Shown piece by piece: positions 749-49,000 of a stretch of DNA of 64,000 nt. The position numbers and the translations under genes were made by a program. The DNA lies in IMG/VR virus record IMGVR_UViG_3300025508_002497, positions 1 through 64,000 of that record; one strand, given 5' to 3'. This DNA comes from a virus. Numbering within the stretch: the stretch's first letter is position 1; each line of letters opens with the position of its first letter. The notes under the pieces are model-generated. The model did no database searches. It saw nothing but the letters and a program-made list of their open reading frames with translations, and was not told where the DNA came from.

Positions 749-749
749 A

Positions 750-7386: not shown

Positions 7387-7405
7387 ATACTTCTCCTATT
7401 ATATT

Positions 7406-7414: not shown

Positions 7415-7417
7415 CTT

Positions 7418-9537: not shown

Positions 9538-9755
9538 TTGAAGAAGACCTCAATACAAATAACATTTTTATCATTAATCATTATCATACTACCGTCAGAT
9601 CTTTCTAACTTAGTAAACTGTCCTTGCTTAATATTATCAGTTACTATGTCAGTGAATGTTCTCTTTTCTCCACCCATAAAATGAATTATCTGGGTGCATG
9701 TTTTTCCATTACTTGAAATAGTAGACTTAGTTTCTGTTTTCATACCGTTCAACAT
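9534..9755 (-). CDS. Hypothetical protein
   Basis: Fills the gap between overlapping neighbours; no recognised motif. Confidence 0.55.
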   Translation of the reverse strand: MLNGMKTETKSTISSNGKTCTQIIHFMGGEKRTFTDIVTDNIKQGQFTKLERSDGSMIMINDKNVICIEVFFK

Positions 9756-16544: not shown

Positions 16545-16545
16545 A

Positions 16546-19110: not shown

Positions 19111-20062
19111 TTAGTATTCCTAAAATTTTCTCGGCGGACTTACCATCCCCAAAGGGACAAGGTTTATTTATTGTAACATCTTTTGTAATCATGTCAACTA
19201 GATTAGAAAGATTTTCTGGCTTCTCACAAAGAACACCATGATGTTCCAATACCTCTGGTCGTTCTGTTGTCTCTCGGCAGATAATAATTTTCTTATTGAA
19301 AAACGACCCTTCTTCTTGTAGTCCCCCACTATCTGTAATCAGAAACTTACAGTTTGCAATTCGCTCAACCATCTTGTCATGAGACAAAGGATCAATCACA
19401 TTTACATTCTTCAGTTTATCTACGGCAGTCATAACAACAGGATTGGGATGTCGAATCACTGTGACGTTTTCATCTAGACTGTCCAGTTCTCTCATCCAAT
19501 CGTCAATGATGTGGTGGTTCTCTCGACGATGAATGGTCACAAGAACTTCGTCACCATAAGACGATTTAACATCAACTAGGTTATCTAGAACAGTATTTCC
19601 CACGACATGAATCTCACCACCGACAGAATCACGAAACAAATGAGTCTTTGCAATCTTAGTAGGACAGAGATGAATATCAGTAATGCGAGAGAGCATCTGT
19701 CGGTATCCCTCTTCGGGGTATGGATGTTCAAGATCGTAAGTTCGCAGTCCCGCTTCCAAATGAATCACGGGAACCTTGTGGTTGAAGGCAGACAGACCAA
19801 CTGCAAGACAAGTCGCAGTATCACCCTGTACCAGAACGGCACTCACTCCATTGAAGTCCATGTTATTCATTACAGAAGAGAAGATCGAATCTAGACGATT
19901 GGTTCCTTCAGTGATCTTCAACTTATCATGAAACCAACCACCAGAAATATCTGCGTGTTGTCCAGTGAACAAGACTCGGTAGGGAATCTTACCCTCGAAG
20001 GCTTTGATCAGAGGTTTAATTTTTATCCACTCGGGTCGAGTACCATAGCATAGTAAAATCAT
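19091..20062 (-). CDS. wecB: UDP-N-acetylglucosamine 2-epimerase (non-hydrolysing)
   Basis: GTRPE, TGQH, QGDT, HLEAGLRT, PYPEE, HRREN, TDSGGLQEE, TERPE, PFGDG motifs. Confidence 0.93.
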   Translation of the reverse strand: MILLCYGTRPEWIKIKPLIKAFEGKIPYRVLFTGQHADISGGWFHDKLKITEGTNRLDSIFSSVMNNMDFNGVSAVLVQGDTATCLAVGLSAFNHKVPVIHLEAGLRTYDLEHPYPEEGYRQMLSRITDIHLCPTKIAKTHLFRDSVGGEIHVVGNTVLDNLVDVKSSYGDEVLVTIHRRENHHIIDDWMRELDSLDENVTVIRHPNPVVMTAVDKLKNVNVIDPLSHDKMVERIANCKFLITDSGGLQEEGSFFNKKIIICRETTERPEVLEHHGVLCEKPENLSNLVDMITKDVTINKPCPFGDGKSAEKILGILNEKFSG

Positions 20063-20784
20063 TTGATTAATTTAAATCCTTCTGACACACATCTCTTCAA
20101 ATACTCACCCATCATCGGGACAGCAAAGTTAGCAGTGGCATTTGCATCTCCACCATATTGAACTGCCTTTAGACTACCCCACAACCTTCTGTCTTCAGGA
20201 GGATGTGGAGGAACCCAAGTACCCATGTCTGTGTATTTCTGAATCATATGAGAGAAGTGAATATCTTCGCCCACTAAGAACGATTCATCAACCGATGGTA
20301 GTTCTCTCCAGAATACGGAGAGTAGATCTCTATGGAAGAACCAATTATGTCCTACGATATCAACCTTCTTTACTTCTGTATTATTATTATCCCAACCAAA
20401 CCTATTCTCACCCAACACACCATAAGTATCGTTTTCAAATATCAATCCAATAGTTCCTAACAAGCCAGGATGAGTTTCATAAGTGTTAACACAGTTTTCA
20501 ATCCACCTATCGCCTGGAATAGTATCATCATCTATAACACAAACGTAGTCAGTCTTAGCATTAAGAGCATAGGCGAATCTCGCCCAAACCCCATAGTTCT
20601 TAGTCGAAACTGCAATATCATGTCCCCCATCAACCAGAGAAGATAAGTCATATCTAAGTTGACTAGTATTCTGCCAATACATGATAGTATCGACTTTGTG
20701 TGTTTGATTCTCTACCGCTTCGACTTGTTCTCTAAGAGTATGGTTTCTCTTATAACCATTCAATATAACACTAACTGTTTTCAT
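20059..20784 (-). CDS. GT2-family (GT-A) glycosyltransferase
   Basis: VSVILNGYKR, IDDD (DxD), GEDIHFS motifs. Confidence 0.75.
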   Translation of the reverse strand: MKTVSVILNGYKRNHTLREQVEAVENQTHKVDTIMYWQNTSQLRYDLSSLVDGGHDIAVSTKNYGVWARFAYALNAKTDYVCVIDDDTIPGDRWIENCVNTYETHPGLLGTIGLIFENDTYGVLGENRFGWDNNNTEVKKVDIVGHNWFFHRDLLSVFWRELPSVDESFLVGEDIHFSHMIQKYTDMGTWVPPHPPEDRRLWGSLKAVQYGGDANATANFAVPMMGEYLKRCVSEGFKLIK

Positions 20785-21425
20785 TGTGTTTTCCTTTTAA
20801 TATAAAGTGCATCACCCCATGTATCACCAGCCCAGTTAGTATCTACTCGTTCAAAGTTATACTCAGACAAGAACTGATCAATCTCTTCCACCATAGGACA
20901 ACCCTCATAAACTTCTGCTCTGTTTACTTCAGAGTAGATGAACTGAATATGAGGTAAAAACTTAGAGGCGCCCTTCATGACTTCTAACTCATAACCCTGA
21001 ACATCAATGTTCATGAAGTTAAAGTCTTCGGGTACGATCTCATCTTCTTCTGCTAGAATATCAAGGGTGGTAACTTCAACCTCGATACTTTCGTTGAACT
21101 TTATATGTGGATATTGTTCTAGATGAATCGAAGGTTTCAATAGAGAGGTAGACATTCCCTTATACAGTTCAGCATTTTGCCCTTCAAAATCTGATACGTT
21201 CATTTGCATTGTCTTCTCTTCAGATCCAAGAGCAACTTGATACAAAGTAATATCATCATCACGAAAGTCTTCTGTGATTTTTTCAACGTGTTCTGGGACA
21301 GGTTCAAACAAAGCAATATTTTTAATACCGCTATTGATATACTGTCTAACCTCTTGTCCGTGGTGCGCCCCAATGTGAAGAACACCCTTCACATGCGGGT
21401 ATAGATTCTCAAGATTCATTAACAT
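20781..21425 (-). CDS. FkbM-family methyltransferase
   Basis: LHIGAHHGQE, FEPVP, IDVQGYELEVMKGA, WGDALY. Confidence 0.9.
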   Translation of the reverse strand: MLMNLENLYPHVKGVLHIGAHHGQEVRQYINSGIKNIALFEPVPEHVEKITEDFRDDDITLYQVALGSEEKTMQMNVSDFEGQNAELYKGMSTSLLKPSIHLEQYPHIKFNESIEVEVTTLDILAEEDEIVPEDFNFMNIDVQGYELEVMKGASKFLPHIQFIYSEVNRAEVYEGCPMVEEIDQFLSEYNFERVDTNWAGDTWGDALYIKRKTQ

Positions 21426-22284
21426 TGTGACTCATCTCCAATAGTTTCACATATTCACTCGCACACTTCTCTAGCGTCAGGTTGTCTAGTATGTATTGTC
21501 GCGGATCATACTTAGATTTGTTCAAGACCTTTTCCATGAAGAGTTCGTCTATAAACTCTTCGAGTCGAGAAAGATCAGGACACTTTATTCCACACCTATC
21601 ATCAAAATACGGCGCTGATGTAGCAGGAAAAGTATGTTGTGGTTGATCATCCCAGACTGGTTTATCAATGACGTAACAAGGAACGCCCATCGAAAGAATT
21701 TCTTGATAAGCAATACCTTGACTCTCGGTTCCTGTGATCGTGACACAGAATCTAGATCGTCTTGCAACATCAATCAACTGTTCTTCTGTATAACTACCAT
21801 AACTAATCAGTTCATACGAAAGTTCATAAACATCAAGAAGACGAATCAACTCTTGCTTTGTTTCCTCTGATCCTCGCTTAAAGTAGATCAAACAATCATT
21901 GTCTTTAGATACCCATCCAGGCGAAAACTTATCAGTATCAATACCAACGGGCCAAACATGAATGTTTACGTTCTCGGTAATTTCAAAAGTTTCATACATG
22001 TCCTTCACCCACTGACAGGGAACAAGAACATCCTTGAAGTGATACCATAACTGCGGGATATCTGTGGGGACAACAACGAGATTGGGACCAACCAAAGTAT
22101 TCTTTGGGAGATCCATAAACCTCGGACCCCATGCAGTCAAGCAACCATTCAGATCTGCTTCTTGATTCACAACATAAGGAACGCCTAGTTTGTGTAAACT
22201 GTGCATCAGGTTGTATGCTACTTTTCCTGGCCCATTGTTGTTACCACACCCACCGTGAAATAATCCAATCATACCTTTATCCAA
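21409..22284 (-). CDS. GT-B glycosyltransferase (GT4-like)
   Basis: GPGKV, WPVGIDT..F, ESQGIAYQEILSMGVP (E-x7-E motif). Confidence 0.75.
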   Translation of the reverse strand: MDKGMIGLFHGGCGNNNGPGKVAYNLMHSLHKLGVPYVVNQEADLNGCLTAWGPRFMDLPKNTLVGPNLVVVPTDIPQLWYHFKDVLVPCQWVKDMYETFEITENVNIHVWPVGIDTDKFSPGWVSKDNDCLIYFKRGSEETKQELIRLLDVYELSYELISYGSYTEEQLIDVARRSRFCVTITGTESQGIAYQEILSMGVPCYVIDKPVWDDQPQHTFPATSAPYFDDRCGIKCPDLSRLEEFIDELFMEKVLNKSKYDPRQYILDNLTLEKCASEYVKLLEMSHNVNES

Positions 22285-23078
22285 TCTTCACAATAAATAT
22301 CTCTCCAACTTTCTTCTGGAGATGTTCCAAGCCATTTCTTCGGAGCAATGATTGTATCGGCATGTGGATTCAAGTATGCTCCCCACCAACTAAAAGAACT
22401 GTTCGCCATTATAACATTCTTACACATACTAATCAAGCACATATCTTGAAACTGGTTCATTCCTTCAGAGAAAAAGAACTGTTTGTTATCATCACTAACA
22501 AACTTTTCCTTACACCATTCTATGTCATCAGATAAGATAACATACTTACCAGATCCTATGTTACTAATCGCTTCGTTATAGTAATCCATACCTAACATAT
22601 TATGCCAACCATTAGACTTAGCATAGTCTGTTCTTCTAACATGAACGGCAGACACTTGAAAATCCCTGTCAAAAGAACTTAGTTTCTCCCAACAGCGTTC
22701 GGTGGTTTCTAATGTAAAGGCAAACTCATCTTTTATCTTATCACTACAATGATCAAAAAACTTAGGAACCTGAAAGTAACCAGACATAGTAATATTATCT
22801 GGAACATCAAACACTCTTTCATCATACTTATTTTCATAGTATGCTAACATATTAAATGGTGTAAACCCTGTGCTATCTTTAGCAGAGATATTAAACTCAT
22901 CCATCAGTTCTAACTTTTCTTTGTGACCGTATGGCTGAGTCGTCTTCGATCTTCTGGCGTTCTCATATGGAATACCATACTCGTAATGATTTTTAGTGGC
23001 AATACCAACCAATGCTGCATACTGAAACATCTGATTTGCTAGTCTACCTAAGTATCCTATTTCCTGATTTACAATCAT
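22269..23078 (-). CDS. GT11 alpha-1,2-fucosyltransferase-like
   Basis: GRLANQMFQYA, GYFQ, HVRRTDY, SDDIEWC, NSSFSWWGAYL. Confidence 0.92.
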   Translation of the reverse strand: MIVNQEIGYLGRLANQMFQYAALVGIATKNHYEYGIPYENARRSKTTQPYGHKEKLELMDEFNISAKDSTGFTPFNMLAYYENKYDERVFDVPDNITMSGYFQVPKFFDHCSDKIKDEFAFTLETTERCWEKLSSFDRDFQVSAVHVRRTDYAKSNGWHNMLGMDYYNEAISNIGSGKYVILSDDIEWCKEKFVSDDNKQFFFSEGMNQFQDMCLISMCKNVIMANSSFSWWGAYLNPHADTIIAPKKWLGTSPEESWRDIYCEDWIKV

Positions 23079-23695
23079 TTATCTACTTTCACATTAGTCC
23101 AAGGAATGTTTCTTGGATCATCCTGATAAAACCACGCTCGTCCAAAAGGAACTACCACGTTGAAATCAGACTGAACTTCAGCAGTCGCAACATCACAGTG
23201 CCATTTCTTTTCTTGCACCCATTCATTCATTGAGTCGATACACTTACTCGCATACTCTTCGCTCAGGTAGAGAACGGCATGAAGAGATGTCATGTATGAT
23301 ACCTTTGCAAAGTTATCATCATACACTCGCATCTCTAACGCCCTCGACATTTTAGAAGACGCCGCTCGTTCTTCTGTCGCACTCCATGTTGTCCACCCAA
23401 GATAAACTGCGTCTACTTCATCTGGAACATCGATCGTAGGTTTGAATGTATCGTTGAAAGTAACGTCATCTTCCAGAACGAGGAAAGGCGTTCCTTCCTC
23501 TAAACCTCTCTCTAGGGTCTTGACATGACTCATACCACAACCAAAGTAATACGGCTGTGCTTTGATAGCAGACACCCTCTCTACGTTATTCATACCAAGT
23601 CTAGTAAACAACCTTATCATACTGTCTTGTCTGTCAGTACGATCATCTAGATTAATCCAGTATGTCTTGAGTGTCGAGAGATCAAGATGCTTCAT
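23075..23695 (-). CDS. GT25 glycosyltransferase
   Basis: YWINLDDRTDR, GCGMSH, LVLEDD, AVYLG motifs. Confidence 0.82.
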   Translation of the reverse strand: MKHLDLSTLKTYWINLDDRTDRQDSMIRLFTRLGMNNVERVSAIKAQPYYFGCGMSHVKTLERGLEEGTPFLVLEDDVTFNDTFKPTIDVPDEVDAVYLGWTTWSATEERAASSKMSRALEMRVYDDNFAKVSYMTSLHAVLYLSEEYASKCIDSMNEWVQEKKWHCDVATAEVQSDFNVVVPFGRAWFYQDDPRNIPWTNVKVDK

Positions 23696-24344
23696 AGTTC
23701 ATTCCAACCTTACCGACTGCGGTTTCGGTGCTACCCCAGAACTGATCTGCATATGGTTCAAAGGGACCATTGTACGGATTCATTTTAGTGTAGTGATTTG
23801 GAATGAAGTAGAAACTTGGATAGACTGCCAACTTGATATAAGCAAGTTCATGTACCGTCTTGGTTAGGAACACTGGACCAACAGTCTTCCAAGCAGAGAG
23901 AGGGCCCTCATGCAAAGTCTGTCCTTCGAGTGTGTGAAGACGATTGACGAGATGATTCATCAACTCACAACCCTTCACACAACCGAGATAACCTGCGGCG
24001 ATTAGTTGGCCACGAATCAGTTCGTTTTCATAACAACTAAAACTATCGTTCTCTAGAAGATAATCATCGAGTGGTCGCTTGCACACACAGTCAGCATCGA
24101 GAAAGAACCCACCAAACTTTTGGAGGATTTCATAACGAGCAATATCGCACTTACCATTCCACTCTGGCATGGCGTCGTATTGTTTCTGATTGTGTAGTCC
24201 GTTTGGAAAGTGTTCTGCGATGGACTCTTCGTTCCAGAACATATACTCATAGTCTGGATGGGCATCTTTCCATGTGTTCATCAGATGCAGAGGTGCAGGC
24301 TTTGGTCCTACCCACAGTTGGTGGATAATCTTTGGGATACTCAT
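23682..24344 (-). CDS. GT32 (OCH1-like, DxD) glycosyltransferase
   Basis: IPKIIHQLW, DIARYEIL..FGGFFLDAD, GPVFLT. Confidence 0.88.
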   Translation of the reverse strand: MSIPKIIHQLWVGPKPAPLHLMNTWKDAHPDYEYMFWNEESIAEHFPNGLHNQKQYDAMPEWNGKCDIARYEILQKFGGFFLDADCVCKRPLDDYLLENDSFSCYENELIRGQLIAAGYLGCVKGCELMNHLVNRLHTLEGQTLHEGPLSAWKTVGPVFLTKTVHELAYIKLAVYPSFYFIPNHYTKMNPYNGPFEPYADQFWGSTETAVGKVGMNYEAS

Positions 24345-26443: not shown

Positions 26444-27136
26444 TCAAGCGTTGTAAGTTGAATCAGTTTCCAGTGCGATCCAATACTTGACATCAGTGTT
26501 CGTGTTCGTAAAGGAACTCACAACAGATTCACAGATCTCAACATCATAATCTCCAGGCAGGAGTTTGAGGTTGTCAATCTTGAAGTTGAACTCAAAGTTG
26601 GGAGTGTCTCCAAGAACATCACCGACCGCAACAGAATAGTCGTTGGATGTAGGATCCTTCTTGTCCCGAACAACAGCGAGAATGTTCTCACCACCCATCG
26701 AGGTAAACGAAAGGTCGGGAAGTTGAAGAACAGAAGCAGCACGCTGAAGATCAGCGAACACACTCTGAGTCAGACTGAGATTGATTACAGTCTCAGGCAT
26801 CTGAACCTGCTTGTTGATCGTAGTAAGAAGACTGGGTTCAGAGTAGTAGTAAGTAACTGCTCGCCCACCTTCTCCTGAGATCTTCACGGACTTTTCACCA
26901 AACACACATGTTGGTGAATCAAAAAGTGACAGCGTACCGAGAAACTTGTTCAGATCCCAGATACCAAACTCGACAGGGAAGTCTTCCTGAACCGTTGCTT
27001 GTGCCATAACGTTCTTGGCGCCAGTGACCGTGTTGATCACATTGCCAGGACGAACGAGAAGGTTAGAGTTGAGTTGAGAAAAGTTCTTCAGAATCGAGAG
27101 TGTTTCTTGCGAAATACTAGTGCTTGTCATAACCAT
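26444..27136 (-). CDS. 45: Sliding clamp gp45
   Basis: LS.ETL.ILKNF..NSN, FGIWDLN.FL, NLKLLPGDY.V, YWIALE. Start adjusted to the ATG with a GGAG SD. Confidence 0.95.
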   Translation of the reverse strand: MVMTSTSISQETLSILKNFSQLNSNLLVRPGNVINTVTGAKNVMAQATVQEDFPVEFGIWDLNKFLGTLSLFDSPTCVFGEKSVKISGEGGRAVTYYYSEPSLLTTINKQVQMPETVINLSLTQSVFADLQRAASVLQLPDLSFTSMGGENILAVVRDKKDPTSNDYSVAVGDVLGDTPNFEFNFKIDNLKLLPGDYDVEICESVVSSFTNTNTDVKYWIALETDSTYNA

Positions 27137-27162
27137 TACAAATAAATCTCCAGTTGGGATGT

Positions 27163-27354
27163 TCAATCATCATATGAATCAAATTCTAGATACTCATCTA
27201 GATCATTAGAGTCTACAAGACCATGATTAACTTTGTCAATCATAATCTTTGTGTTGTGTCGAGAAGATCTTTTAGCCTGTTTCTTCTGACTGCGGGTGCC
27301 ATTTTTAGGTCCACTATCCTCTCTATAAGGATTATCTTTTGGGTTACGTCCCAT
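27163..27354 (-). CDS. Hypothetical small protein (basic N-terminus, acidic C-terminus)
   Basis: SD GGAG; first ORF after a sigma70 promoter. Confidence 0.6.
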   Translation of the reverse strand: MGRNPKDNPYREDSGPKNGTRSQKKQAKRSSRHNTKIMIDKVNHGLVDSNDLDEYLEFDSYDD

Positions 27355-27377
27355 TTATAAACTCCATTTCAATATGT

Positions 27378-27405
27378 ATTATATCTCACTTCACGGAATT
27401 GTCAA
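27378..27405 (-). promoter_or_regulatory. Consensus sigma70-type early promoter for the gp45-44-groES-62-regA operon
   Basis: Minus strand TTGACA (27405-27400), 16 nt, TATAAT (27383-27378); intergenic. Confidence 0.85.
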
Positions 27406-27418
27406 GTGATAATTTAGA

Positions 27419-27879
27419 TTAAGCCCAGTTAAGTTTAATTTGTGTTGTTTCTCCGGTAGCCAATGTATTCCAAAAGTTGATTACATCTGTAGAAGATCCA
27501 TTCCAACGAACCCTCAAAATTGTACCCGAATTAGAACCAAAAGTGTGAGTTATTGAAGTAGCATTAAAGGCTGCTCCATCATGGGTCCAAGTGCTATCTG
27601 CGGTAATGATACCACCAGCATTAGTCACAACAGTCTCCCATGCTCCGGCGTTAACGTAGTCGCCAGATGATTTTACTCTAAGTAACCACTCTATGTAAGT
27701 AGAACTAATGTCTTTCCGTAAAGGCGTGGAACTATAAAGTTCATAATTGTTTGCCACATCATCAGTACCAGACAGTGTTGAATTTGTTAGATTAAAAAAA
27801 CCACGGGCAGCCACTAACTCTGCGTCGAGTTGTAGTTTTACGCCAGCAGGAGTAGGAAATAATAACCAATGAGGAGGAG

Positions 27880-27883
<4 letters not shown>
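27419..27883 (-). CDS. Hypothetical protein downstream of the fibre (possible tip or chaperone)
   Basis: ATGA overlap with the fibre gene; Thr/Ser/Trp-rich, beta-type composition. Confidence 0.6.
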
Positions 27884-31712
<3,829 letters not shown>

Positions 31713-31713
<1 letters not shown>

Positions 31714-32801
31714 TATGTATTAACCCTCATTGAAACTTCACCCGCAAAGTTATTGGTAGATTCCCAAATATCATAAAGGATATCAAGACCATACTCATTT
31801 GTATGTGTAAATGAACCAGTGAGACCAAAGGGGAAACCCAATCCATTTGCAGTATTAGTCATCGTTAAAGTTCCTGAATACTCACTCTGTGGTAGTATGA
31901 AGAAACCTTTATTCCCAGGCGAGACAGCAGGGAAAGTGAAAGTCCAGTTATCTGGGGATGTTCTACTGAGAGTATCAGTAAAACCTTGTGCTGTTAAACC
32001 TGTCCCATCAAAACCAGTCGCAGTTCTACCACTGAAGTATCTATAACGCCAGTTCATGGTATCAGTTTTAGTTGGATTACTTCCACTTGCCTGCTCACCC
32101 TCAATCGTGAAGGTAAGAGTTTTTTCTACATTGAAGTTATACGCCCCATGAGAAATCGATTGAGGTGAACCATCGTAGTTCAAACCAGAGACAAGAGTTC
32201 CAACACTCTGATTTGCAGAGATTGAAAGGGAACCAGCAACCCAGTTTGCGTTTGGACCAGCAGTAGACCAAGTAGAGTTTACCGTTGTATTACCAGCGGT
32301 TTGTCCAACTTCATATGGTCCAGAAGAAAGTCCAATATCAAAGGCGGAGAACGAAACTGGTTGGTATGCGAAGAGTAAAGTTTCTAAGATTTCAATGGCA
32401 GTAGTTCCATCACTAAATGATGTTCCTGCTACAATACCACCAAGACTATCTGGGAATGTTTCACCACCTCTAGTCCAACCTCGAACCGCAAAAGTAGGAC
32501 CGTTTAGAGTCAGTCCTGTACCAGCAACATATGTGTCACCTGTGCCATCCGCTCCAGTCACACCTGCGGGTCCAGTGGGTCCAGTGGGTCCGTCAGCACC
32601 ACTCCCGCCACTTCCACCACTACCACCAGCACCAAGTGAAACCCACCCAACACGGGTGCCGTGTTCGGGTGAGTGACCGATGATAGTATCTGTTGCTAGA
32701 TAATATAATCCATTCTTTCTAACAACATCACCGGGATTATAAGTTATTAGGTTACCGTTTGCATCTACTGCCTTGTAATAACCTCGATATTTATTTCCCA
32801 T
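31713..32801 (-). CDS. Virion protein with a short collagen segment, probable paralogue of 5258..6940
   Basis: [13 protein letters not shown]; C-terminal YFSG...FFILP...[15 protein letters not shown] resembles the C-terminus of 5258..6940. Confidence 0.72.
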
Positions 32802-32826
32802 AGGATTCTTCCATAAAGAATACCTA

Positions 32827-32835
32827 GTATATATG
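32827..32835 (-). promoter_or_regulatory. Putative late promoter variant CATATATAC for fibre module 1
   Basis: Intergenic; the same 9-mer as 7406..7414. Confidence 0.5.
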
Positions 32836-33537
32836 TTATGAATATGTCCTCAGAATCACAGTATCCTTATTGATTCTACCTGTAGGGATAGCGTTTTTCG
32901 TTTTAATGTTATTGATAACACGCTTGGTATAATCGATACGTCCCTCTGTTATATTACTAAGAAGAGTCAAGTTATTCTTTCTGATAGTCTTAGTAACAGA
33001 ACTTTCAGAAAAATTTTGAATAGTAGTTCCCTTGACACTAAGACCTTCCTTAGTACTAGCCTCAAACAGAGTTAGTTTCTTGGTCTTAGTGTTGAAACAG
33101 AGAAGGCCACTAGCACCCACGATGTTGACAGGATCGATCGATTCTAGATTGAACTCTTTTGATTCAGGCATATACTGAACCGACTTCACGAGTTTATTGG
33201 GATCGACCTTTCGTTTGCGTCGAGTGATCTTAGACTTCGCTTCTAGAACTTCAATCAAAGAGTCCAGATATTCGTCTAGTTTCTTCAACTTAGTAGTCGA
33301 AAGAAACGAGTAACCTTCCACCAAGTCCTCGTCGGTTTTGTTGATGGCTCCAGTGATCTCACCTCGTACTTCAATGAAGTGATCTCTTAGGAGTTTGATT
33401 TCTCTTTTAGTTGGTTTGTAAGACTTGATCGCATTCTCGAAGTTGGGCTTTCTAATCGAACCACCATCAGAGAGTTTACCCATATAATCGTCCAAGAATC
33501 GTTCAAGAATATTACCAAATTCGGTGTCTTGTTTCAT
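32836..33537 (-). CDS. Conserved hypothetical protein of T4-like phages
   Basis: SIDP..IVGA..L..FNTKTKKL...GLSVKGTTI.NF...KTIRK...TGRINKD pattern. Confidence 0.65.
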   Translation of the reverse strand: MKQDTEFGNILERFLDDYMGKLSDGGSIRKPNFENAIKSYKPTKREIKLLRDHFIEVRGEITGAINKTDEDLVEGYSFLSTTKLKKLDEYLDSLIEVLEAKSKITRRKRKVDPNKLVKSVQYMPESKEFNLESIDPVNIVGASGLLCFNTKTKKLTLFEASTKEGLSVKGTTIQNFSESSVTKTIRKNNLTLLSNITEGRIDYTKRVINNIKTKNAIPTGRINKDTVILRTYS

Positions 33538-35108
33538 TATGCTTTCCGAAAAACAAAGATAGGTTCATACTTCAAATATCTGCCGTTCACTTGACAGAAG
33601 TTTTTGCACTTTGGTTTGCCGTCTTCACCCACGCGGTTCTGACCAGGCATTCCTTCTAGTGCCATTTTCATTTTGTATTTATATTCTACACCAAGTTCAC
33701 CCAGTATGTCAATAGAGTCTTGCTCTAAAGGCAGATATTCTCCCTTGATCAATATATCTGCAATGTTCCATAGGAGATAGCCGCCTGGTCGTAACCATTC
33801 AGCACAAGTGGAAAGTGTCGGTCGCAAGAATCCATCACGCCATGACTCATATGAACTTCCATACTTCTTGTAACTCTGGTTTTCATCTTCACTATAAGCC
33901 TCTCGATTAAAATAAGGAGGAGAAGTGAAGACCACATCAATCTCGCCTCTGTGCTTTTGAAAATCTTTGTCATACTGAATCTCCTCGGAACCTAGTTGGA
34001 AGACTTCGTATGTATGTGTGCTTGAAAAGAATGGGTTTGATCTGTATGTTTTTGTGTTGTAAAAATCTGCGAGATCACTATAACGAGAACTTCCATCATT
34101 ATTAAAGTTATCAGGATTGGGGTCAGTGCCAATGTAATGCAGAGTGCGATCATCACGGACAGCCATAGCCCCAAGGATACGACCACCCCAGCCACTGCTC
34201 GGATCATAGATCTTAATCGGTCTGTCTTTGATGTGGTTAGTGAATCGCTCATACAAGTATTTAGCAGTCATCGGTGGGAAGTTTACTGCGGGTTGAATGT
34301 AGCCGATACGAAACGACTTGAACCCGCCAGGAAAAATCTTCTTACCTTTATCATACAAACGAATGGCATAGACAGACTCATCGTCCATGTTGTCGATGTC
34401 AAACGTCGAGTGGTGTCGATACTCCAGACGATCGCGGAACTCTTCGACTTCTTCTTTTGTTAACTGAAGAATGTTTGTTTGCTCTACTTGATGATAGCCT
34501 GTATTCAGTCCTTCTCGGATCTTGACTTGTTCGAGCAGGAAGTCCTTGCCCGCAAACATCGTCGGATTCTCAAAAAACGCGAGGATCCAATCCCTAGCAG
34601 AATCAACAGATACAACGCTATGCTTCCTCGAACGCTTGAGGGTGGAGACAGCATGAGAATAAAAAGAGTCCCTACGAAAGTGCCGAAGAGAACCTTTATA
34701 CACTCGATCAAAATAGTCTGGGTTGGCGACAAGATCGTAGATCGAGTGTCCATTGTCTTTCTCCGTATAGTTGATTCTTGTCTTAAACATATTGTCGAAG
34801 AACTGATCGGCTTCAACACCAAGTCGAGACTTGTTGATGATCACATCTTTCGGTGTGTCACTTAGTTCGTCATCGAACTCAAACTGATGAGCAGGAAACT
34901 CCGACATGCGGTTGAACGCAGTAACAATATCCTCTTCGTTCTTTCCCGTTCGAGGAGGACAGCCGTTGTTGTCCCACGCGGCAGTCAACTCTTCACGAAG
35001 TTGAATCACCCAATCTTTGAACTGATCGGGTGTCATCTCTAGAAGGTCTTCAAAGTTTACATTGACATCACTATTAATGATGGCATCATTTCGTTCGTAA
35101 AATCTCAT
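33537..35108 (-). CDS. SAM-dependent amino (N4-C/N6-A) DNA methyltransferase-like protein
   Basis: YDPSSGWGGR (motif I) precedes FTSPPYF (motif IV); LRPGG. Start likely MRFYERN at 35108 (ATGA overlap). Confidence 0.8.
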   Translation of the reverse strand: MRFYERNDAIINSDVNVNFEDLLEMTPDQFKDWVIQLREELTAAWDNNGCPPRTGKNEEDIVTAFNRMSEFPAHQFEFDDELSDTPKDVIINKSRLGVEADQFFDNMFKTRINYTEKDNGHSIYDLVANPDYFDRVYKGSLRHFRRDSFYSHAVSTLKRSRKHSVVSVDSARDWILAFFENPTMFAGKDFLLEQVKIREGLNTGYHQVEQTNILQLTKEEVEEFRDRLEYRHHSTFDIDNMDDESVYAIRLYDKGKKIFPGGFKSFRIGYIQPAVNFPPMTAKYLYERFTNHIKDRPIKIYDPSSGWGGRILGAMAVRDDRTLHYIGTDPNPDNFNNDGSSRYSDLADFYNTKTYRSNPFFSSTHTYEVFQLGSEEIQYDKDFQKHRGEIDVVFTSPPYFNREAYSEDENQSYKKYGSSYESWRDGFLRPTLSTCAEWLRPGGYLLWNIADILIKGEYLPLEQDSIDILGELGVEYKYKMKMALEGMPGQNRVGEDGKPKCKNFCQVNGRYLKYEPIFVFRKA

Positions 35109-35872
35109 GCTCCTACATTCCAAAAAAGTGCGCCAGGTGACGCATGATCCTTGATAAACTCCCACGCTTTTGCGTCGTAGGTTGGTGCGGACGGGAATGG
35201 GGGCAACACTTTGGTTGCTTTGTTGAAGGCGTATTTCGACTGGTAGGTCTTAGCCTTTCCGTACTCGCCGCTATGTCCCACACGGACGCAGTGAAAGGAG
35301 GATCCTTGCCATGCGAGTTGTAGTCCTCTGGTGAGTGTTCCACTTGATCCTACCGTCCAAACTTCATCTGGACATACATCCATGTTACGAGCCACCCTAA
35401 TGATGGAAGCGATAACAGTAGGATGGTCAAAACCAATAGGAAGTAATCTGCGATGCTTTGGATCTTCTGCAACATAATCTCTTGCCCTTTTTTCGGTCAC
35501 ACTAAGCATCCCGTTTGGGATCCAGTGCATTATAGCACCTGCTTCGATTGCTTGCAACTGATAAGGGTGTCTTTTTTCGACAGCACGATCTGCCATGAAG
35601 ATCACCGCCTTCTTGTCATACCTGCCACACAGATGTGCAAGTGAGATCTGAGCATAACCAGTGGCAGGTGAACTGCCATACACCCACTCATCAATCTCAG
35701 GCTGTGACTGGATCAGGTAGTCGGCGAATCGCATCTTCGACCCACCACCGATGAGATCATCACGGACGACGAGGATCCCCTCATGCTCCTCCACGATGGG
35801 AGCAGGGAGGGAATCCGTCCAATCACCGATCATCTCTAAGTAGTCTTCTGCTGTCTCTGTGAATAGACTCAT
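35105..35872 (-). CDS. PLP-dependent fold-type II enzyme (ACC deaminase/D-Cys desulfhydrase-like)
   Basis: VRDDL.GGGSKMR (PLP lysine), VGSSGTL phosphate loop, PTYDAK, FWNVG. Start MSLFTET has a GGAG SD. Confidence 0.8.
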   Translation of the reverse strand: MSLFTETAEDYLEMIGDWTDSLPAPIVEEHEGILVVRDDLIGGGSKMRFADYLIQSQPEIDEWVYGSSPATGYAQISLAHLCGRYDKKAVIFMADRAVEKRHPYQLQAIEAGAIMHWIPNGMLSVTEKRARDYVAEDPKHRRLLPIGFDHPTVIASIIRVARNMDVCPDEVWTVGSSGTLTRGLQLAWQGSSFHCVRVGHSGEYGKAKTYQSKYAFNKATKVLPPFPSAPTYDAKAWEFIKDHASPGALFWNVGA

Positions 35873-35882
35873 TTTTCTCCGA

Positions 35883-36701
35883 TCATAGATGATAACATAA
35901 GTTCCTACAGATATTAACATTCATATCATAATCATCGGTGGGATCTATTAGTGTCTGAACTTCATTACCTACAAACTGCTGTATTCCATTTTTTCTAGCA
36001 GAGGCAGAAAAAGTTACATACTCCATTTGAACACCGTCCGTGGTGTAATCTAATCCTTTATGAATTTGATCTGTTCTAATCATGTAACACATATGAACTA
36101 GATCAACAGCAAAAGTTCCAATAAGAGTTTTATTCCATATTGGTCTAGACATATTCTTATTTTCTTCTGAACCATCATAGTAACCATTTGAAGAACACCT
36201 CAAATAAAATCCTCTAGGAAAAGCACCATCATTATGCACCATCATAGGCGCAAAAATAGGTTTGTTTTCACGCACACAATACTTTATAGTTTCTGGTGGG
36301 AAAAAATTATCCCCATCACAAACGAAGTAATAGTCACACCCAGTATTTAAGGCATGGTACATACTTGCATTTCTTATTTTCCCGAGTGTACTGAGTCTAA
36401 TCCCACCTTCTGCGTACCACGCCTCTTCTCCACCGGGACCAGCCGAAACACCATCTAACTCATGAAAATATTCTTCAAGAAAAGTTACCGAACGATACTT
36501 TCCAGACTCATCTATTTTTTTACACCAGTCTCTAAGTTTTACGTTGGTGTTATCACTATTGTTATTTGTATGAACATAGATCGACAGATATTCAGGATCA
36601 TAATCAATATTTTCTACGCACTTTAAAAACATGGACAATTTATTTTCCATGTCTCTTACTAGTATTGTAATTTGCACTATTGGCATCAATCCTCTAGACA
36701 T
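35883..36701 (-). CDS. GT-A protein resembling the N-terminal domain of procollagen galactosyltransferase (COLGALT) and PLOD GT-like domains
   Basis: Colinear motifs NNNSDNT..LRDW, YRSV, CDYYFVCDGDN, ENKPIFAPMM, SSNGYY, GTFAVDLVHMCYMI, FSASARKNGIQQFVGN. Confidence 0.75.
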   Translation of the reverse strand: MSRGLMPIVQITILVRDMENKLSMFLKCVENIDYDPEYLSIYVHTNNNSDNTNVKLRDWCKKIDESGKYRSVTFLEEYFHELDGVSAGPGGEEAWYAEGGIRLSTLGKIRNASMYHALNTGCDYYFVCDGDNFFPPETIKYCVRENKPIFAPMMVHNDGAFPRGFYLRCSSNGYYDGSEENKNMSRPIWNKTLIGTFAVDLVHMCYMIRTDQIHKGLDYTTDGVQMEYVTFSASARKNGIQQFVGNEVQTLIDPTDDYDMNVNICRNLCYHL

Positions 36702-36729
36702 CTAACATCTCCATTATATGTTATTATAC

Positions 36730-38451
36730 TCATACTATCTTCAACTTACTAAAGTTATTCTTCTTATTAAATACCATCATGTTATTAAACTTATCTGCTA
36801 ACTGATCTGCCTTGTGACTAATAATATAAACATTACATCGAGAGCCTAGGTTATGAAGTAGTTTCATAAACTCGTCTGTACCCCCTGAATCTAAAGACGA
36901 ATCAAACACCTCATCAAGAATCAATAAGTTGGTGTTGGCACTGTTCTTCAACCTAGCAATCTCTCGCCATGTTAATAGTATTGCTAAGTCGATCCTAAGT
37001 TTTTCGCCTTCACTGAAACTCATATAACTAAAGTCATCTCGGTGCCTTGACTTGATAGTTTCATTGAAGTTTTCGTCTAGATTGAACTGGGCAAAGAAAT
37101 CCATAACAGTTAGATACTTGTTAATGAGTTTGTTCATGGTTGGGAGGTAGTGTCGGATGATCTTAGATTTGATCCCACTGTCCTTTAATAGTGCCATAGC
37201 ATACTCGGCGAGAACCTTTTCCTCTTTTAGTTCTTGCTGCTTCTCTACTTGTTCCTTGCCTTCCTTCGCAAGATTCTTAAGGATGTCCTTCTCCTTGAGG
37301 TTCTCTTTATCGATGGACATGAGCCTACTATACTCTTTCTGGTTCTTCGTGATGTAACTCTGGTTGGCTCGGATCGTCGTGTTGTGGTTACTAATTTCCT
37401 TTTCTTTCTCGCGGATTCGGCCGAGTGTTTCCGTGTACTCATCTAACTTCTTCTCCACAGCATCAATGCTTGTTTCATGTTCAACTCGAATTTTATTCTT
37501 CTCGTCCTGCTCCTCTGTAATCAACGAACAAATTTTATCCTTATGATCATCGGCGATTGGCTGACGACAAGTCGAGCAGTTGTCATTCTCTGTATAGAAC
37601 TTCATCTCTTTTTCTAGACGATTTAACATCTGCTCAGTCTGATTCAACTTCTTTGTCAGTTCCTTGAATGTCTTTTTAGTTTCATCCTGTTCACTCAGAC
37701 CGAGCAACAGGCTGTCAACCTCTACTTGTAGAACCTCAATCTTAGATTCAAGTTCTTTGATGTTGTCTTCTGTGTTCTTGATGTCGGTCATGATCACTTC
37801 GAGGTTGTCTTCGTTTTGTTTCTGTAGCGTCTCGATCATTTTCTTGTGAACAGAAACCTTCTCCACAATCACTTCGATCTTTTGATCTATAATGCCAATA
37901 CTTTCCTTCACTTCAGAATATTTACTTTTCATAAGTGTATTCATTGTGGAGAAAATCTGGATATCTAGAATGTCCTCGATCACTTCTCTGCGATCTGCGG
38001 CAGGTAACTGCATGAAAGGAACGAATGATGAACTACCAAGAATCACCACCTGAGTAAATGACTTGTAGTTCATCTTCAGGATTTGCTCCTCAAGCATTCG
38101 CTGATAGTCTTTCGCCTTGGCATCCTGATGTAGCATTACATCGTTCTTGTAGATCTCAAAGATCTTTGGTGCCAGACCACGACGAACCTTGTAGTCATCT
38201 TTACCAATCGAGAACTCGACCTCAACCACGCAATGCTTCTGGTTGATGCTGTTGACCAACTGAGGAATGTTTACCTTACGAAACGGCTTACCAAACAGAC
38301 CGAATGTAATAGAATCAAGCAGGGCAAAAGACTTACCCTGACCGTTCGATCCTGACACTAGAACCATAGAATATTTGTCGAGATATATTTCTGTGAAATA
38401 GTTTCCGAAAGAACCGAAGTTCTTAAATCGGACAGTTTTAAATTCAATCAT
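36730..38451 (-). CDS. 46: Recombination endonuclease subunit gp46 (Rad50/SbcC-like)
   Basis: GSNGQGKS, CSTC zinc hook, coiled coil, FSEGEK, LILDEVFD, IISH. Confidence 0.96.
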   Translation of the reverse strand: MIEFKTVRFKNFGSFGNYFTEIYLDKYSMVLVSGSNGQGKSFALLDSITFGLFGKPFRKVNIPQLVNSINQKHCVVEVEFSIGKDDYKVRRGLAPKIFEIYKNDVMLHQDAKAKDYQRMLEEQILKMNYKSFTQVVILGSSSFVPFMQLPAADRREVIEDILDIQIFSTMNTLMKSKYSEVKESIGIIDQKIEVIVEKVSVHKKMIETLQKQNEDNLEVIMTDIKNTEDNIKELESKIEVLQVEVDSLLLGLSEQDETKKTFKELTKKLNQTEQMLNRLEKEMKFYTENDNCSTCRQPIADDHKDKICSLITEEQDEKNKIRVEHETSIDAVEKKLDEYTETLGRIREKEKEISNHNTTIRANQSYITKNQKEYSRLMSIDKENLKEKDILKNLAKEGKEQVEKQQELKEEKVLAEYAMALLKDSGIKSKIIRHYLPTMNKLINKYLTVMDFFAQFNLDENFNETIKSRHRDDFSYMSFSEGEKLRIDLAILLTWREIARLKNSANTNLLILDEVFDSSLDSGGTDEFMKLLHNLGSRCNVYIISHKADQLADKFNNMMVFNKKNNFSKLKIV

Positions 38452-39503
38452 ACAGACAACGACTCCATATACAAATCACGAATCATCAGTTTTAATTTTG
38501 TCTTCTGCTCTTGGTTCAGTTCCTTCATATCTTCAACCTCATTCGATATGATTGAAACAGTATCCAAAGACAGATCAACGTCCTCTTCAATTTCATCTTC
38601 GCCACCGAAGTCTTCGACTACCGTAACATTAGACACTGGTACATCATATAGATTATCAAGGAACCTGTCAAACAAATATGGTTTAGTTTTATTGTCAACG
38701 AACAACTTGACATAGGCGTTTTTGTATTCGCCGAATGGGAACTTGCTGATGTCAAAGTCTTGGCTGTCGTCGTATGAGATCTTAAAGAACTTCTTTCGTG
38801 GGTTCTCCACAAACTCCAAGTCTCTCGTCTCTGTGTCAAAGACATGAAAGCCTTTTCTGTCGTTGAGATCACTGAAGGTAATCTGATATTGAGTACCAAG
38901 ATATGTAACATTGTTCTGGACGCTACGGCTGTGGAAGTGTCCAGACAGAACCATATCGAACCTTCGCAAAGGTTCATCCGACATACCACCATCAAAAGGC
39001 AGTCCTCGCATCACCTCATACCCATTGAGTTCAAAGTGACCACAGATGATGTTGCTCTTTGTATTCTTTAGATACTCTAAAGTCTTCTCACGATTCTCGC
39101 TGTTTACCCACGGAACCATACCAACTTTTACGCCATCAAATTCTAGATCAATCGGCTGTTGGTAGATAAAGAAGTTTGAATAACGATCACCGAACAACTC
39201 GTTAACCGAGTTAAGATCATTGGTATTCTTATAGAACGTATCATGATTGCCTAGAATACAATGAACGACGATGCCTTCACGAAGCAGTGGCTCCATGAAC
39301 TCACTACGAACAGTATTCAGTGTATTGAAGTTGACAAACTTTCGTCTGTCCATAAGATCACCTAAATGAAGAACAGTATCAATGTTGTTCTCCTTCAAAT
39401 ACGGAAAGAACTGTTCACGAAAAAAGTCCGTGAAGTATTCTAGGAATATTTGACTATCTGATCTTGCACCCCAATGAGTATCATTTATTATTGCTATCTT
39501 CAT
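38448..39503 (-). CDS. 47: Recombination endonuclease subunit gp47 (Mre11/SbcD-like)
   Basis: DTHWG, LGDLMDRRK, GNHD, GHFEL, SGHFH. Confidence 0.96.
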   Translation of the reverse strand: MKIAIINDTHWGARSDSQIFLEYFTDFFREQFFPYLKENNIDTVLHLGDLMDRRKFVNFNTLNTVRSEFMEPLLREGIVVHCILGNHDTFYKNTNDLNSVNELFGDRYSNFFIYQQPIDLEFDGVKVGMVPWVNSENREKTLEYLKNTKSNIICGHFELNGYEVMRGLPFDGGMSDEPLRRFDMVLSGHFHSRSVQNNVTYLGTQYQITFSDLNDRKGFHVFDTETRDLEFVENPRKKFFKISYDDSQDFDISKFPFGEYKNAYVKLFVDNKTKPYLFDRFLDNLYDVPVSNVTVVEDFGGEDEIEEDVDLSLDTVSIISNEVEDMKELNQEQKTKLKLMIRDLYMESLSV

Positions 39504-47245: not shown

Positions 47246-47486
47246 TTGGATCCTCGCTTTCGCTGTCATCAACTTCAATATATTCTCGCTCTTCGTCCTC
47301 AATCTCTTCGATTTCGGGTTCTTCGACCTCTGGTTCTTGCTTGGTGACTAGATTTGCCACAACGTCTGGGGTGATTGCCCCTGTGGCATCTTGAACCTTC
47401 ATCTTGAAAGTATCACCAAATGTTTGCTGAAACTTTTCCATGTTGTCGTCAAGCATACTCTTTAATAGTTCTTCTGCTGGTTTCAT
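47232..47486 (-). CDS. Small acidic prohead core protein (gp67-like position)
   Basis: MKPAEELL...; Glu-rich tail; ATGA overlap with gp20. Confidence 0.65.
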   Translation of the reverse strand: MKPAEELLKSMLDDNMEKFQQTFGDTFKMKVQDATGAITPDVVANLVTKQEPEVEEPEIEEIEDEEREYIEVDDSESEDPNETG

Positions 47487-49000
47487 AGTTCATCCTCTGT
47501 AGGGGGAGGTGGTTCCGCCGCCATTTCTTTAGCGATTTCTTCCATCTCCTTTTCACTTTGCTTTAAAATATTCTTTCGTACCCAGTTATCTGAGTAGAAT
47601 CTTCCGAGATATGGCTCTACGCTTTGAAGCATCTCAAGACGCTCTCGCATAATCTCTGCTTCTTTGAGTTCTGTAAAATAAGAGTCCTTCTGATAATCAA
47701 AGTAGATATCTTGAACAATCCTATTCCAGTCATCTTCTTTCATAATACCCTTGAGAAGACATTGAGTTCTCATCAACTGAATAAACAGATCCGAAAAACG
47801 TTGACGAAGACGATCGATAAACTTGAAGAAGTTCAGTTCGTCTCGGCTGATTTCAGAAGATCGTCCCATGTTGAAGCCGTTTTCTGCATCCATTCGGGAG
47901 GTAGGGACATGAAGGGCGCGATATACTTTCTTGAGGAAGTAATCAACATCTTCCATCTCACCGAGGTTCTGTCCACCATCAAGAGTGCTGATTTCAGTTC
48001 CTCTACCACCTTCTCGCCTTGGTAGCCAATAATCTTCAAGCATGTTCATATGCTTACGATCATCTTTGATCTCACCAGTGCTGGCATCATAGACCAACTT
48101 GTTCTGGTATCGATTCATGATGTCCTTGAGATACTGTTCTGCCTTCTGCTTGGGTAGGTTACCTACGTCAATATAGAAGATACGACGCTCTGGCGCACGG
48201 GAGATACGATAAACTACAGTGGCATCTTCTGTCTGTCGAAGCATGTTCAATGGACGGATTGCCTTCTGAAGATATCCAACAACTCGCTTGGTTCCTGAAT
48301 CAATAATACCAGAGTGAACATAACAGATAGAATCAGGAGCGATCTTCAATCCTGACTGTGATGTCTGGAAGGAGGACTGCTTGTCTAGGTTTGTATAAAG
48401 ATAAAACTCTTGAACGTTTTTAACAACGGCAACTTGAGTTCCATTCACACTCTCTTGTGCTTTCTGAACGTTACGAACTTTCTTAATTTTTGCTGGATCA
48501 ATAGCACGAAGTTCAATGATACCTTTATTCTTATTTGATTCATCTAGAATAATATGGTAATAGATCTTGCTATCGATGTACCATCTTCTAAAAATTTCAT
48601 ATGCTTTTTGATTAAACTTGAGTAGTCTAAGTATTCCCTCAAACTCATCCTTCATTTTATTTTTGATAGAAACTGGCATATCAACTTTATCTAAATCAAT
48701 AGAGACTATTGTTCTGTCTTGACCGTGAACAATAGCCTCTGTTGTAATATCATCGATCGCAAGATCGACTTCGGGATATAGTGCCATACTTCTGTAACGG
48801 GCGATCAGATCATTTTCTGATTTGAAACCACCCTGAAAGTCAACGTACTGACCAAAAACTCCACCACCATCTACGGTGAATGTTCCATCATATTCGTCTG
48901 GACCAACAAATGACGCTGCTTTTGAGTCAGCGCCATTTGTTGATTTTCCTGTTAGTTTTCCATTACGACCAATGGTAAAACCAAATAAATCAATTGCCAT
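47483..49000 (-). CDS. 20: Portal protein gp20
   Basis: FRRWYID, YRISRAPERRIFYIDVGNLPK.KAEQY, EDYWLPRREGGRGTEI.TL.GG.NLG. Confidence 0.98.
   Translation of the reverse strand: MAIDLFGFTIGRNGKLTGKSTNGADSKAASFVGPDEYDGTFTVDGGGVFGQYVDFQGGFKSENDLIARYRSMALYPEVDLAIDDITTEAIVHGQDRTIVSIDLDKVDMPVSIKNKMKDEFEGILRLLKFNQKAYEIFRRWYIDSKIYYHIILDESNKNKGIIELRAIDPAKIKKVRNVQKAQESVNGTQVAVVKNVQEFYLYTNLDKQSSFQTSQSGLKIAPDSICYVHSGIIDSGTKRVVGYLQKAIRPLNMLRQTEDATVVYRISRAPERRIFYIDVGNLPKQKAEQYLKDIMNRYQNKLVYDASTGEIKDDRKHMNMLEDYWLPRREGGRGTEISTLDGGQNLGEMEDVDYFLKKVYRALHVPTSRMDAENGFNMGRSSEISRDELNFFKFIDRLRQRFSDLFIQLMRTQCLLKGIMKEDDWNRIVQDIYFDYQKDSYFTELKEAEIMRERLEMLQSVEPYLGRFYSDNWVRKNILKQSEKEMEEIAKEMAAEPPPPTEDEL

Follow-up and report, generated by a model that had tools for sequence, protein, structure and literature searches.

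A stand-alone phage homologue of the COLGALT1 GT1 domain and its possible role in the glycosylation of collagen-like fibres

Here we describe a gene from a marine T4-like myovirus whose product is a stand-alone homologue of a domain found in the collagen-glycosylating enzymes of animals and giant viruses. The gene was identified in the first 64,000 nucleotides (hereafter the window) of IMG/VR record IMGVR_UViG_3300025508_002497, a 97-kb contig estimated to represent 54% of a genome. It encodes a glycosyltransferase-type protein of the GT-A fold, specifically related to the GT1 domain of human COLGALT1 and to the accessory (AC) domain of LH3 and of mimivirus R699. This domain is common in bacteria and phages, and in bacteria it is frequently encoded beside genes for collagen-like proteins of the G-X-Thr type. 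We propose, with a probability of about 0.5, that the protein takes part in the O-glycosylation of threonines in the phage's own collagen-like G-X-Thr fibres.

Homology and fold of the target protein

The gene under study, hereafter the target gene, is the following:

35883..36701, minus strand: target gene, encoding a 272-aa stand-alone GT-A protein homologous to COLGALT1 GT1 and to the LH3/R699 accessory domain

The initial annotation, made from the letters of the sequence, had proposed that this protein is a homologue of the N-terminal domain of COLGALT on the strength of seven ordered motifs. All seven are present in the translation in that order, and the human COLGALT1 strings given there for comparison do occur in HMMER alignments with the Protein Data Bank (PDB) chains 9evj and 9u7j. 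The homology was then recovered by several methods. In a phmmer search of the PDB sequences, the target matched COLGALT1 (E 3e-14, residues 7-210) and the AC domain of LH3/PLOD3 (E 9e-6). A family profile (A3), built from 63 phage, viral and bacterial homologues, matched COLGALT1 over 228 of its 229 positions (E 3e-46), LH3 (E 2e-21) and the AC domain of R699 (E 4e-10), with no further significant match in the PDB and, specifically, no sequence match to yeast Mnn9. The AlphaFold2 model of the target is of high quality by its predicted local distance difference test (pLDDT) score, 94.3, and with this model Foldseek placed COLGALT1 at the top (E 7e-21, template modelling score 0.79). Structural alignment with VIA-align gave the same answer: COLGALT1 residues 46-319 scored Z 28.4 (250 aligned residues, 26% identity), followed by LH3 293-542 (Z 25.4), yeast Mnn9 (Z 21.4), R699 (Z 20.5) and generic GT2 proteins (Z 17-19), while in a viral structure library the best matches were giant-virus PLOD-like proteins.

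In Pfam, the target matches Anp1 (PF03452; E 1.9e-9, 37.8 bits against a gathering cut-off of 28.8). However, Mnn9 and the generic GT2 proteins score clearly lower than COLGALT1 and LH3, both by sequence and by structure, and therefore the target is specifically related to COLGALT GT1 and to the LH3/R699 accessory domain, rather than to generic GT2 or Anp1 proteins. The outcome by which the initial annotation would have been refuted, best matches to generic GT2/Anp1 proteins without specific COLGALT/PLOD affinity, was not observed. The GT62 mannosyltransferases were considered as the closest relatives of the target and were ruled out on the Z scores given above for COLGALT1, LH3 and Mnn9.

The target fits the GT-A class in having a Rossmann-like fold, a DxD motif and a C-terminal histidine, and its list of structural matches is full of GT-A enzymes. 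Across the alignment of 63 phage, viral and bacterial sequences, 14 residues never vary, among them D129, D131 and E227; at least 90% of the sequences have H203, and the TNNNSD motif (T45-D50) is conserved in the family. The ligand-binding residues of the human domain are thus found again in the phage: D129/D131 form the DxD and align with COLGALT1 Asp166/Asp168, and E227 aligns with COLGALT1 Asp265, which touches the galactose of the bound UDP-galactose (UDP-Gal) (PMC12003778). The protein is a single domain, with neither a GT25 domain in the same polypeptide nor a tetratricopeptide repeat (TPR) part, and no signal or membrane segment was seen in its sequence.

A family widespread in bacteria and phages

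In the paper describing the COLGALT1 structure, a BLAST search with GT1 returned animals and giant viruses only (PMC12003778). The domain is, however, no speciality of these groups. A word-indexed search retrieved 40 stand-alone homologues from marine metagenomes (31-97% identity), all of them unnamed, and when 1.84 billion cluster representatives were searched with a profile, 1755 clusters reached E <= 1e-3 and 392 of these E <= 1e-30, mostly of multidomain proteins. A scan seeded with motifs, run on one genome for each prokaryotic species, confirmed 130 loci, of which 80, with 28-37% identity to the target, were kept; they span Alphaproteobacteria (Mesorhizobium, Methylobacterium), Chlamydiota, Dependentiae, Bacillota, Actinomycetota and others. 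A scan of IMG/VR confirmed another 120 loci. Since the family is abundant in bacteria and phages, the target cannot be regarded as a gene of animal type that only this phage possesses, and the reservation of the initial annotation, that bacterial homologues might exist and temper the novelty, was well founded. The family has nevertheless gone unnamed: there is no model for it in PHROGs or NCBIfam, the clusters of the target are annotated as 'hypothetical protein' only, tblastn of the target against 50,697 cultured phage records found nothing, and our literature search found no description of the family or of glycosylation of phage collagen fibres.

The phylogeny with bacterial homologues that had been suggested at the outset was obtained for 63 prokaryotic and viral sequences; this maximum-likelihood tree is effectively unrooted. 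In it, 12 marine phage sequences form one clade (100/100), apart from the bacterial and the other viral rows. A second viral clade of 12 rows, from IMG/VR contigs of which several exceed 100 kb (L086-L161), groups with two actinobacterial sequences; in several of these contigs a G-X-T collagen-like open reading frame (ORF) lies about 6-7 kb upstream of the glycosyltransferase gene.

In bacteria, the target domain (T) usually follows a GT2+TPR module (N) in a fused chain, and at times it precedes a GT25 or a PLOD-type glycosyltransferase domain. Among 54 bacterial multidomain proteins that contain T, an N-terminal GT2 is present in 48, GT25 in 12, a methyltransferase in seven and a PLOD-type glycosyltransferase in one. 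In the top 150 cluster representatives, T is placed behind the GT2+TPR module in 53; by architecture, 93 have T alone or with unmodelled parts, 36 are N-T and six N-T-GT25, while 18 are stand-alone T proteins (<=330 aa), and some of the bacterial proteins in this set carry two or three copies of T. The profile of the N module matches Listeria GmaR (E 1e-20) and SunS (E 2e-12), and NCBIfam also reports SunS-family similarity. GmaR is a flagellin O-GlcNAc transferase and SunS a peptide glycosyltransferase, and by these similarities the N module is of the protein- or peptide-glycosylating type. A protein from a Chlamydiae metagenome-assembled genome (OFTM85, L006:4855-8445), adjoining a GPT-rich collagen-like ORF, comprises in its 1197 aa a GT2, a TPR, a COLGALT-GT1-like and a PLOD-type glycosyltransferase domain (PF25342, E 1.4e-34); it combines, in the opposite order, the two kinds of domain found in the N-terminal half of animal LH3.

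Genomic linkage to G-X-Thr collagen-like genes

The neighbourhoods of the homologues were scanned in six frames for runs of at least ten G-X-Y triplets, with flanks of 6 kb at the bacterial loci. A collagen-like ORF was found near the homologue at 44 of the 80 bacterial loci and at 15 of 78 other viral loci. The collagen gene lies upstream of the glycosyltransferase gene in 41 of the 44 bacterial cases (27 co-directional, 14 divergent), even though the downstream flanks are longer in total. The triplets of the linked genes are nearly all G-X-Thr (GAT, GST, GPT, GDT): threonine occupies the Y position in 233/233 triplets at a Mesorhizobium locus (L036), in 266/266 at L040 and in 283/284 at a Paenibacillus locus (L063). 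As a background control, two 8.7-Mb Mesorhizobium genomes were examined; among the matches listed, all those to the Collagen Pfam family fall in one gene, which adjoins the glycosyltransferase gene, and the chance that a random 13-kb window holds this gene is about 0.2%. In Mesorhizobium sp. AR07, the neighbour of the collagen gene encodes an 819-aa protein of N-T-GT25 architecture (L036:4789-7245).

Two of these loci deserve a brief description. L036 corresponds to positions 2237071..2247370 of the Mesorhizobium sp. AR07 chromosome; its collagen-like frame, of about 2183 aa and with a DUF4347 N-terminal part, is divergent from the 819-aa fusion, and the same layout is seen in several Mesorhizobium species. 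L063 (Paenibacillus medicaginis, 1..10362) encodes, in order, a G-A-T collagen-like protein, an SgtA-like GT2+TPR protein (SunS-family E 1e-32), an IS605/TnpB-type transposase, a stand-alone T-type glycosyltransferase, a hexapeptide acetyltransferase, a hexapeptide+GT2 fusion and a second T-type domain fused to a hexapeptide acetyltransferase. This layout suggests that the collagen-like protein may bear an acetylated glycan.

The phage's collagen-like fibres and a split pair of modules

The window encodes two fibre modules, a GT2+TPR protein of the N type, and a glycan island that lies between the N and T genes:

27880..31713, minus strand: long collagen-like fibre of module 1 (1277 aa, 167 G-X-Y triplets), a likely acceptor
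31713..32801, minus strand: short fibre of module 1 (362 aa), which matches a tail-fibre PHROG weakly and includes a short stretch of G-X-Y triplets
5258..6940, minus strand: collagen-like protein of module 2 (560 aa, 76 triplets, T at Y in 49), without Lys-type repeats
750..5258, minus strand: long collagen-like fibre of module 2 (1502 aa, 137 triplets, T at Y in 72)
7418..8662, minus strand: GT2+TPR N-module protein (414 aa), directly upstream of fibre module 2
8659..24344, minus strand: sugar-nucleotide/glycan island (17 kb), a possible supplier of donors and transferases, with epimerase/dehydratase, sulfotransferase, split transketolase, RpiB fusion, HAD, DegT aminotransferase, GNAT, UDP-GlcNAc 2-epimerase, GT2, FkbM methyltransferase, GT4-like, GT11, GT25 and Gly_transf_sug genes
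23075..23695, minus strand: stand-alone GT25 (206 aa), inside the glycan island

As the initial annotation had pointed out, a collagen-like gene lies some 4 kb from the target: the long fibre of module 1 starts 4.2 kb downstream of it in the direction of transcription. The 167 triplets of this fibre, arranged in GDQ-G[TIV]K-GET-G[PS]T repeat units, carry T (83), K (38) and Q (35) at Y. In all three large collagens of the phage, threonine is found at Y more often than any other residue, and many lysines occur in that of module 1 only.

The GT2+TPR architecture, which bacteria fuse to the target domain, is here encoded by a separate gene. The product of 7418..8662 can be aligned with residues 1-369 of the Mesorhizobium fusion (34% identity, E 4e-59), and its model (pLDDT 91.6) has SunS/ThuS as its top folds, matched over the full length (about 400 columns). 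By this alignment, the phage encodes N and T in two different genes, and a fibre module lies downstream of each. The glycan island, when measured with this gene (7418..24344), terminates in the protein-type GT2+TPR gene beside fibre module 2.

A different partner had been put forward initially, namely that the stand-alone GT25 is the other half of a COLGALT-like enzyme. The GT25 itself is real (PF01755, E 1.1e-9), but the pairing finds little support. This gene lies 12 kb away; its likeness to the GT25 domains of the bacterial fusions is confined to the generic motif (E 7e-5 over 36 aa), and among PDB sequences it gave no match to COLGALT1 and a weak one to mimivirus R655; and homologues are found in the cultured cyanophages P-SSM2, P-SSM5 and S-CAM7, which lack the target gene. 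The better-supported split partner is the GT2+TPR protein, with its match to the N-terminal module of the fusion. The case for the GT25 as a further transferase of the same pathway is weak.

The locus and the phage

The target ORF starts with ATG, preceded 8 nt upstream by GGAG, and begins 28 nt past the stop codon of the gp46 (SbcC-like) gene. It occupies the variable region between gp46 and gp45, a slot that it shares with fibre module 1 and that is outside the glycan island; in the window, three unrelated genes separate it from the fibre genes, and all the genes of the region are on the minus strand. The G+C content is 0.34-0.36 across the target (36000..37200) against 0.40-0.47 on either side, as would be expected if the gene had a separate origin or had arrived recently. 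A scan of 27000..38600 found promoter-like sites no more often than in shuffled sequence and no clear intergenic terminator. Two further genes follow the target:

33537..35872, minus strand: PLP-like ORF (pyridoxal-phosphate type; weak PALP match; PHROG 7093, E 1e-35), then a 542-aa N6/N4-type methyltransferase

A more probable start for the PLP-like ORF than 35920 is the ATG at 35872, which is preceded by GGAG. In the Erythrobacter phages R6L and ZS04 and the Microcystis phage Mae-JY30, homologues of its product lie under DNA methylase features, and the PLP-like and methyltransferase genes look like one DNA-modification unit independent of the glycosyltransferase.

The gp46 DNA of the phage is 66-68% identical to that of Synechococcus phages. 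Its portal protein gp20 (47483..49000, minus strand) shows about 52% identity to those of Methylophilales, Pelagibacter, Prochlorococcus and Synechococcus phages alike; the phage belongs to a lineage with no close cultured relative. Two other contigs (L082 and L083) come from the same phage type, with core proteins 97-99.8% identical to those of the window. Their target proteins are 96.7% identical and their long collagen fibres (L082/L083:14968-16425, compared with 27880..31713) 84-86% identical, the long fibre being the fast-evolving part. Gene neighbourhoods in the marine clade come from this phage type only, that is, from the window, L082 and L083.

Proposed function and its alternatives

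How could the target act? A related domain is present in all three solved enzymes that glycosylate collagen (COLGALT1 GT1, LH3 AC and R699 AC), and the genomic linkage of the family to collagen-like genes argues for a role in collagen glycosylation. The fusion of T to the GT2+TPR module, the presence of this module as a gene of its own beside fibre module 2, the prevalence of threonine at Y in the phage collagens and the invariant residues also speak for the proposal. The experimental precedent for such a locus is found in Clostridioides difficile, where the GT-A+TPR enzyme SgtA, encoded by a gene adjoining bclA3, adds beta-O-GlcNAc to the threonines of the BclA3 collagen repeats (PMC7157674). 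In the pathway that we infer, with its acceptor, its order of steps, its donor sugar and a catalytically competent target, this protein would be a soluble cytoplasmic GT-A glycosyltransferase dependent on a metal and a UDP-sugar, binding both ligands in the infected cell and acting on the fibre proteins before their assembly. By analogy with the bacterial fusions, the GmaR/SunS/SgtA-type enzyme encoded at 7418..8662 would put the first sugar on threonine, the target would add a further sugar onto this Thr-linked one, and other transferases of the island, perhaps the GT25, would extend the chain.

Several observations weigh against this proposal. (i) Of the 44 collagen-positive bacterial loci, 42 also have the fused N module, so that its link to collagen genes and that of T cannot be told apart. 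(ii) In the 18 closest marine contigs (about 52-76% identity), most of 1-7 kb and six of them of 5-7 kb, no collagen gene, N module or GT25 was found in the flanks, which are so short that they say little about a link to fibres; they contain small ORFs, a phrog_3704 protein and a SpoU methylase. In the window itself, the target gene and the fibre genes are not adjacent. (iii) A long branch (1.04 substitutions per site) sets the marine phage clade apart from the collagen-linked bacterial sequences, and therefore the function of this clade could have drifted. (iv) The homologous domains of COLGALT1 and LH3 keep the same motifs and are yet reported to be non-catalytic (PMC12003778). Conservation of these residues is therefore no proof of catalysis in the target.

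The main rival to a catalytic role follows from this last point. The target could belong to the same fibre pathway without being a transferase, with the UDP-sugar and the metal bound structurally, and serve as a scaffold, a dimerisation module or a substrate-presenting partner of the GT2+TPR protein or the GT25. Its closest solved relatives have all been described as non-catalytic in spite of keeping the DxD, the histidine and the acidic residue, and the bacterial T domain is nearly always in one chain with another glycosyltransferase domain. However, the 18 stand-alone proteins among the top 150 representatives and the entire marine phage clade, all of about 270 aa, retain the 14 invariant residues in the absence of such a chain, and the proteins with two or three T copies are better explained by successive transfers than by scaffolding. 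Nothing points to a physical partner, and we consider an accessory role unlikely, though it deserves more attention than the alternatives that follow.

The 17-kb island suggests another possibility, namely that the target and the island remodel the lipopolysaccharide (LPS), O-antigen or capsule of the host through free or lipid-linked glycans, no protein being modified. Marine T4-like phages carry LPS-type glycosyltransferase islands, which are thought to change the host surface (PMC7029224); the island in the window resembles them, and Anp1, the Pfam match of the target, is a family of polysaccharide mannosyltransferases. Yet the target gene is outside the island, in the gp46-gp45 slot with fibre module 1, and its family is linked to collagen-like genes and protein- or peptide-type GT2+TPR modules instead of polysaccharide export or polymerase genes. 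A surface-glycan role is, on this evidence, improbable.

We give still less credence to an animal-type split COLGALT, in which the G-[TIV]-K-G sites of the module-1 fibre would receive galactose on hydroxylysine through the joint action of the target and the GT25. The 38 lysines at Y in this fibre, and the existence of bacterial T+GT25 fusions in the COLGALT order, speak in its favour. Nonetheless, no match to PF13640 or PF03171 (2-oxoglutarate-Fe(II) oxygenases, the lysyl hydroxylase type) or to PF25342 (PLOD glycosyltransferase) was found in the 97-kb contig, which is about 54% of a genome, so that a hydroxylase could sit in the remainder. Moreover, the collagens linked to the family are Lys-free G-X-T proteins, those of phage module 2 are nearly devoid of Lys repeats, and the GT25 of the window has the generic similarity, the distant position in the island and the presence in target-free phages already noted. 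Thus, the part of the initial proposal that saw in the target a collagen-glycosylating enzyme is backed by the family linkage, whereas its implied acceptor, hydroxylysine, is less likely than threonine, because the partner collagens are G-X-Thr and the contig encodes no recognisable lysyl hydroxylase.

Finally, a DNA-hypermodification pathway formed by the target, the PLP-like enzyme (35105..35872) and the methyltransferase (33537..35165) is most improbable: the three genes are contiguous and tightly spaced and the methyltransferase bears an N6/N4 DNA methylase signature, but among about 200 loci with homologues of the glycosyltransferase the other two genes occur only in L082 and L083 (the same phage type), the PLP-like homologues of the Erythrobacter and Microcystis phages lie within DNA-methylase genes in genomes without the glycosyltransferase, no thymidylate-synthase or hydroxymethylase-type gene was found in the 97-kb contig (about half of the genome), and the flanks of the short marine contigs, where no PLP-like enzyme or methyltransferase was found, argue against a fixed module of the three.

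Implications

It was already known that collagen-like proteins are O-glycosylated, by SgtA in the case of BclA3 and by COLGALT/PLOD in others, and that phages encode glycosyltransferases. What is new here is the existence of the COLGALT-GT1/PLOD-AC domain as a stand-alone protein in phages and bacteria, its systematic linkage to G-X-Thr collagens, its fusion to GT25 and PLOD-type glycosyltransferases outside animals, and the split arrangement in a tailed phage. A broader reading, which we offer tentatively and hold to be possible rather than probable, is that this unnamed prokaryotic and phage family is the active, free-living ancestor of the 'dead' domains COLGALT GT1, LH/PLOD AC and R699 AC; that, together with a GmaR/SunS-type initiator and often a GT25 or PLOD-type glycosyltransferase, it O-glycosylates G-X-Thr collagens; and that phages use it to sugar-coat their fibres. 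If this were so, both the COLGALT order (T followed by GT25) and the pairing of T with a PLOD-type glycosyltransferase, in the order opposite to that of LH3, would have existed in bacteria before animals. Should the family prove active, it would offer a single-domain model, open to experiment, for a domain whose part in the making of human collagen and in disease is poorly understood, and would suggest that the machinery of collagen glycosylation arose in bacteria. The collagen-like fibres of phages would then be predicted glycoproteins, with consequences for host recognition, fibre stability and the reading of the 'LPS-type' islands of marine phages.

Comparison with known systems

The target can be set against five characterised or predicted systems, to which it shows both similarities and differences: (i) The yeast Anp1/Mnn9 proteins (GT62, PF03452; PDB 3zf8) share with it a Pfam match above the gathering score and the GT-A fold (Z 21.4). 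Mnn9 is, however, a Golgi mannan mannosyltransferase with 13% identity to the target and no PDB sequence match, and it ranks below COLGALT1 and LH3. (ii) LH3/PLOD3 and mimivirus R699 contain the homologous AC domain within enzymes that glycosylate collagen; in these multidomain proteins it is inactive and placed in the middle or at the C-terminus, with 13-20% identity to the target. (iii) The GT1 domain of human COLGALT1/GLT25D1 (PDB 9evj, 8zgc; PMC12003778) is the same GT-A domain over its whole length, with the DxD, the C-terminal histidine and the acidic residue (Asp265, corresponding to E227), and both proteins are associated with collagen-type substrates. Nevertheless, COLGALT1 is a two-domain enzyme of the endoplasmic reticulum in which GT1 is reported to be non-catalytic, binding Ca2+ and UDP-Gal structurally, and in which the catalytic GT25 acts on hydroxylysine, whereas the target is a stand-alone cytoplasmic domain whose likely acceptor context is G-X-Thr. 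(iv) In the SgtA/BclA3 system of C. difficile (PMC7157674), the gene for a cytoplasmic GT-A+TPR enzyme lies beside that for a G-X-Thr collagen-like surface protein, which is O-glycosylated on threonine. Here, the likeness concerns the N-module protein of the phage (7418..8662) and not the target, and it rests on the architecture and on the SgtA-like neighbour in Paenibacillus; no COLGALT-GT1-like second enzyme has been described for this system. (v) The nearest functional context is that of the bacterial fusion proteins, with 30-37% identity to the target (E 1e-30 to 1e-42), such as the Mesorhizobium sp. AR07 protein (GT2+TPR / T / GT25) encoded beside the G-X-T collagen-like gene of that genome. 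These fusions join their modules in one chain, whereas the phage, whose clade forms a distinct long branch, encodes the first two of these modules as separate genes beside its collagen fibres.

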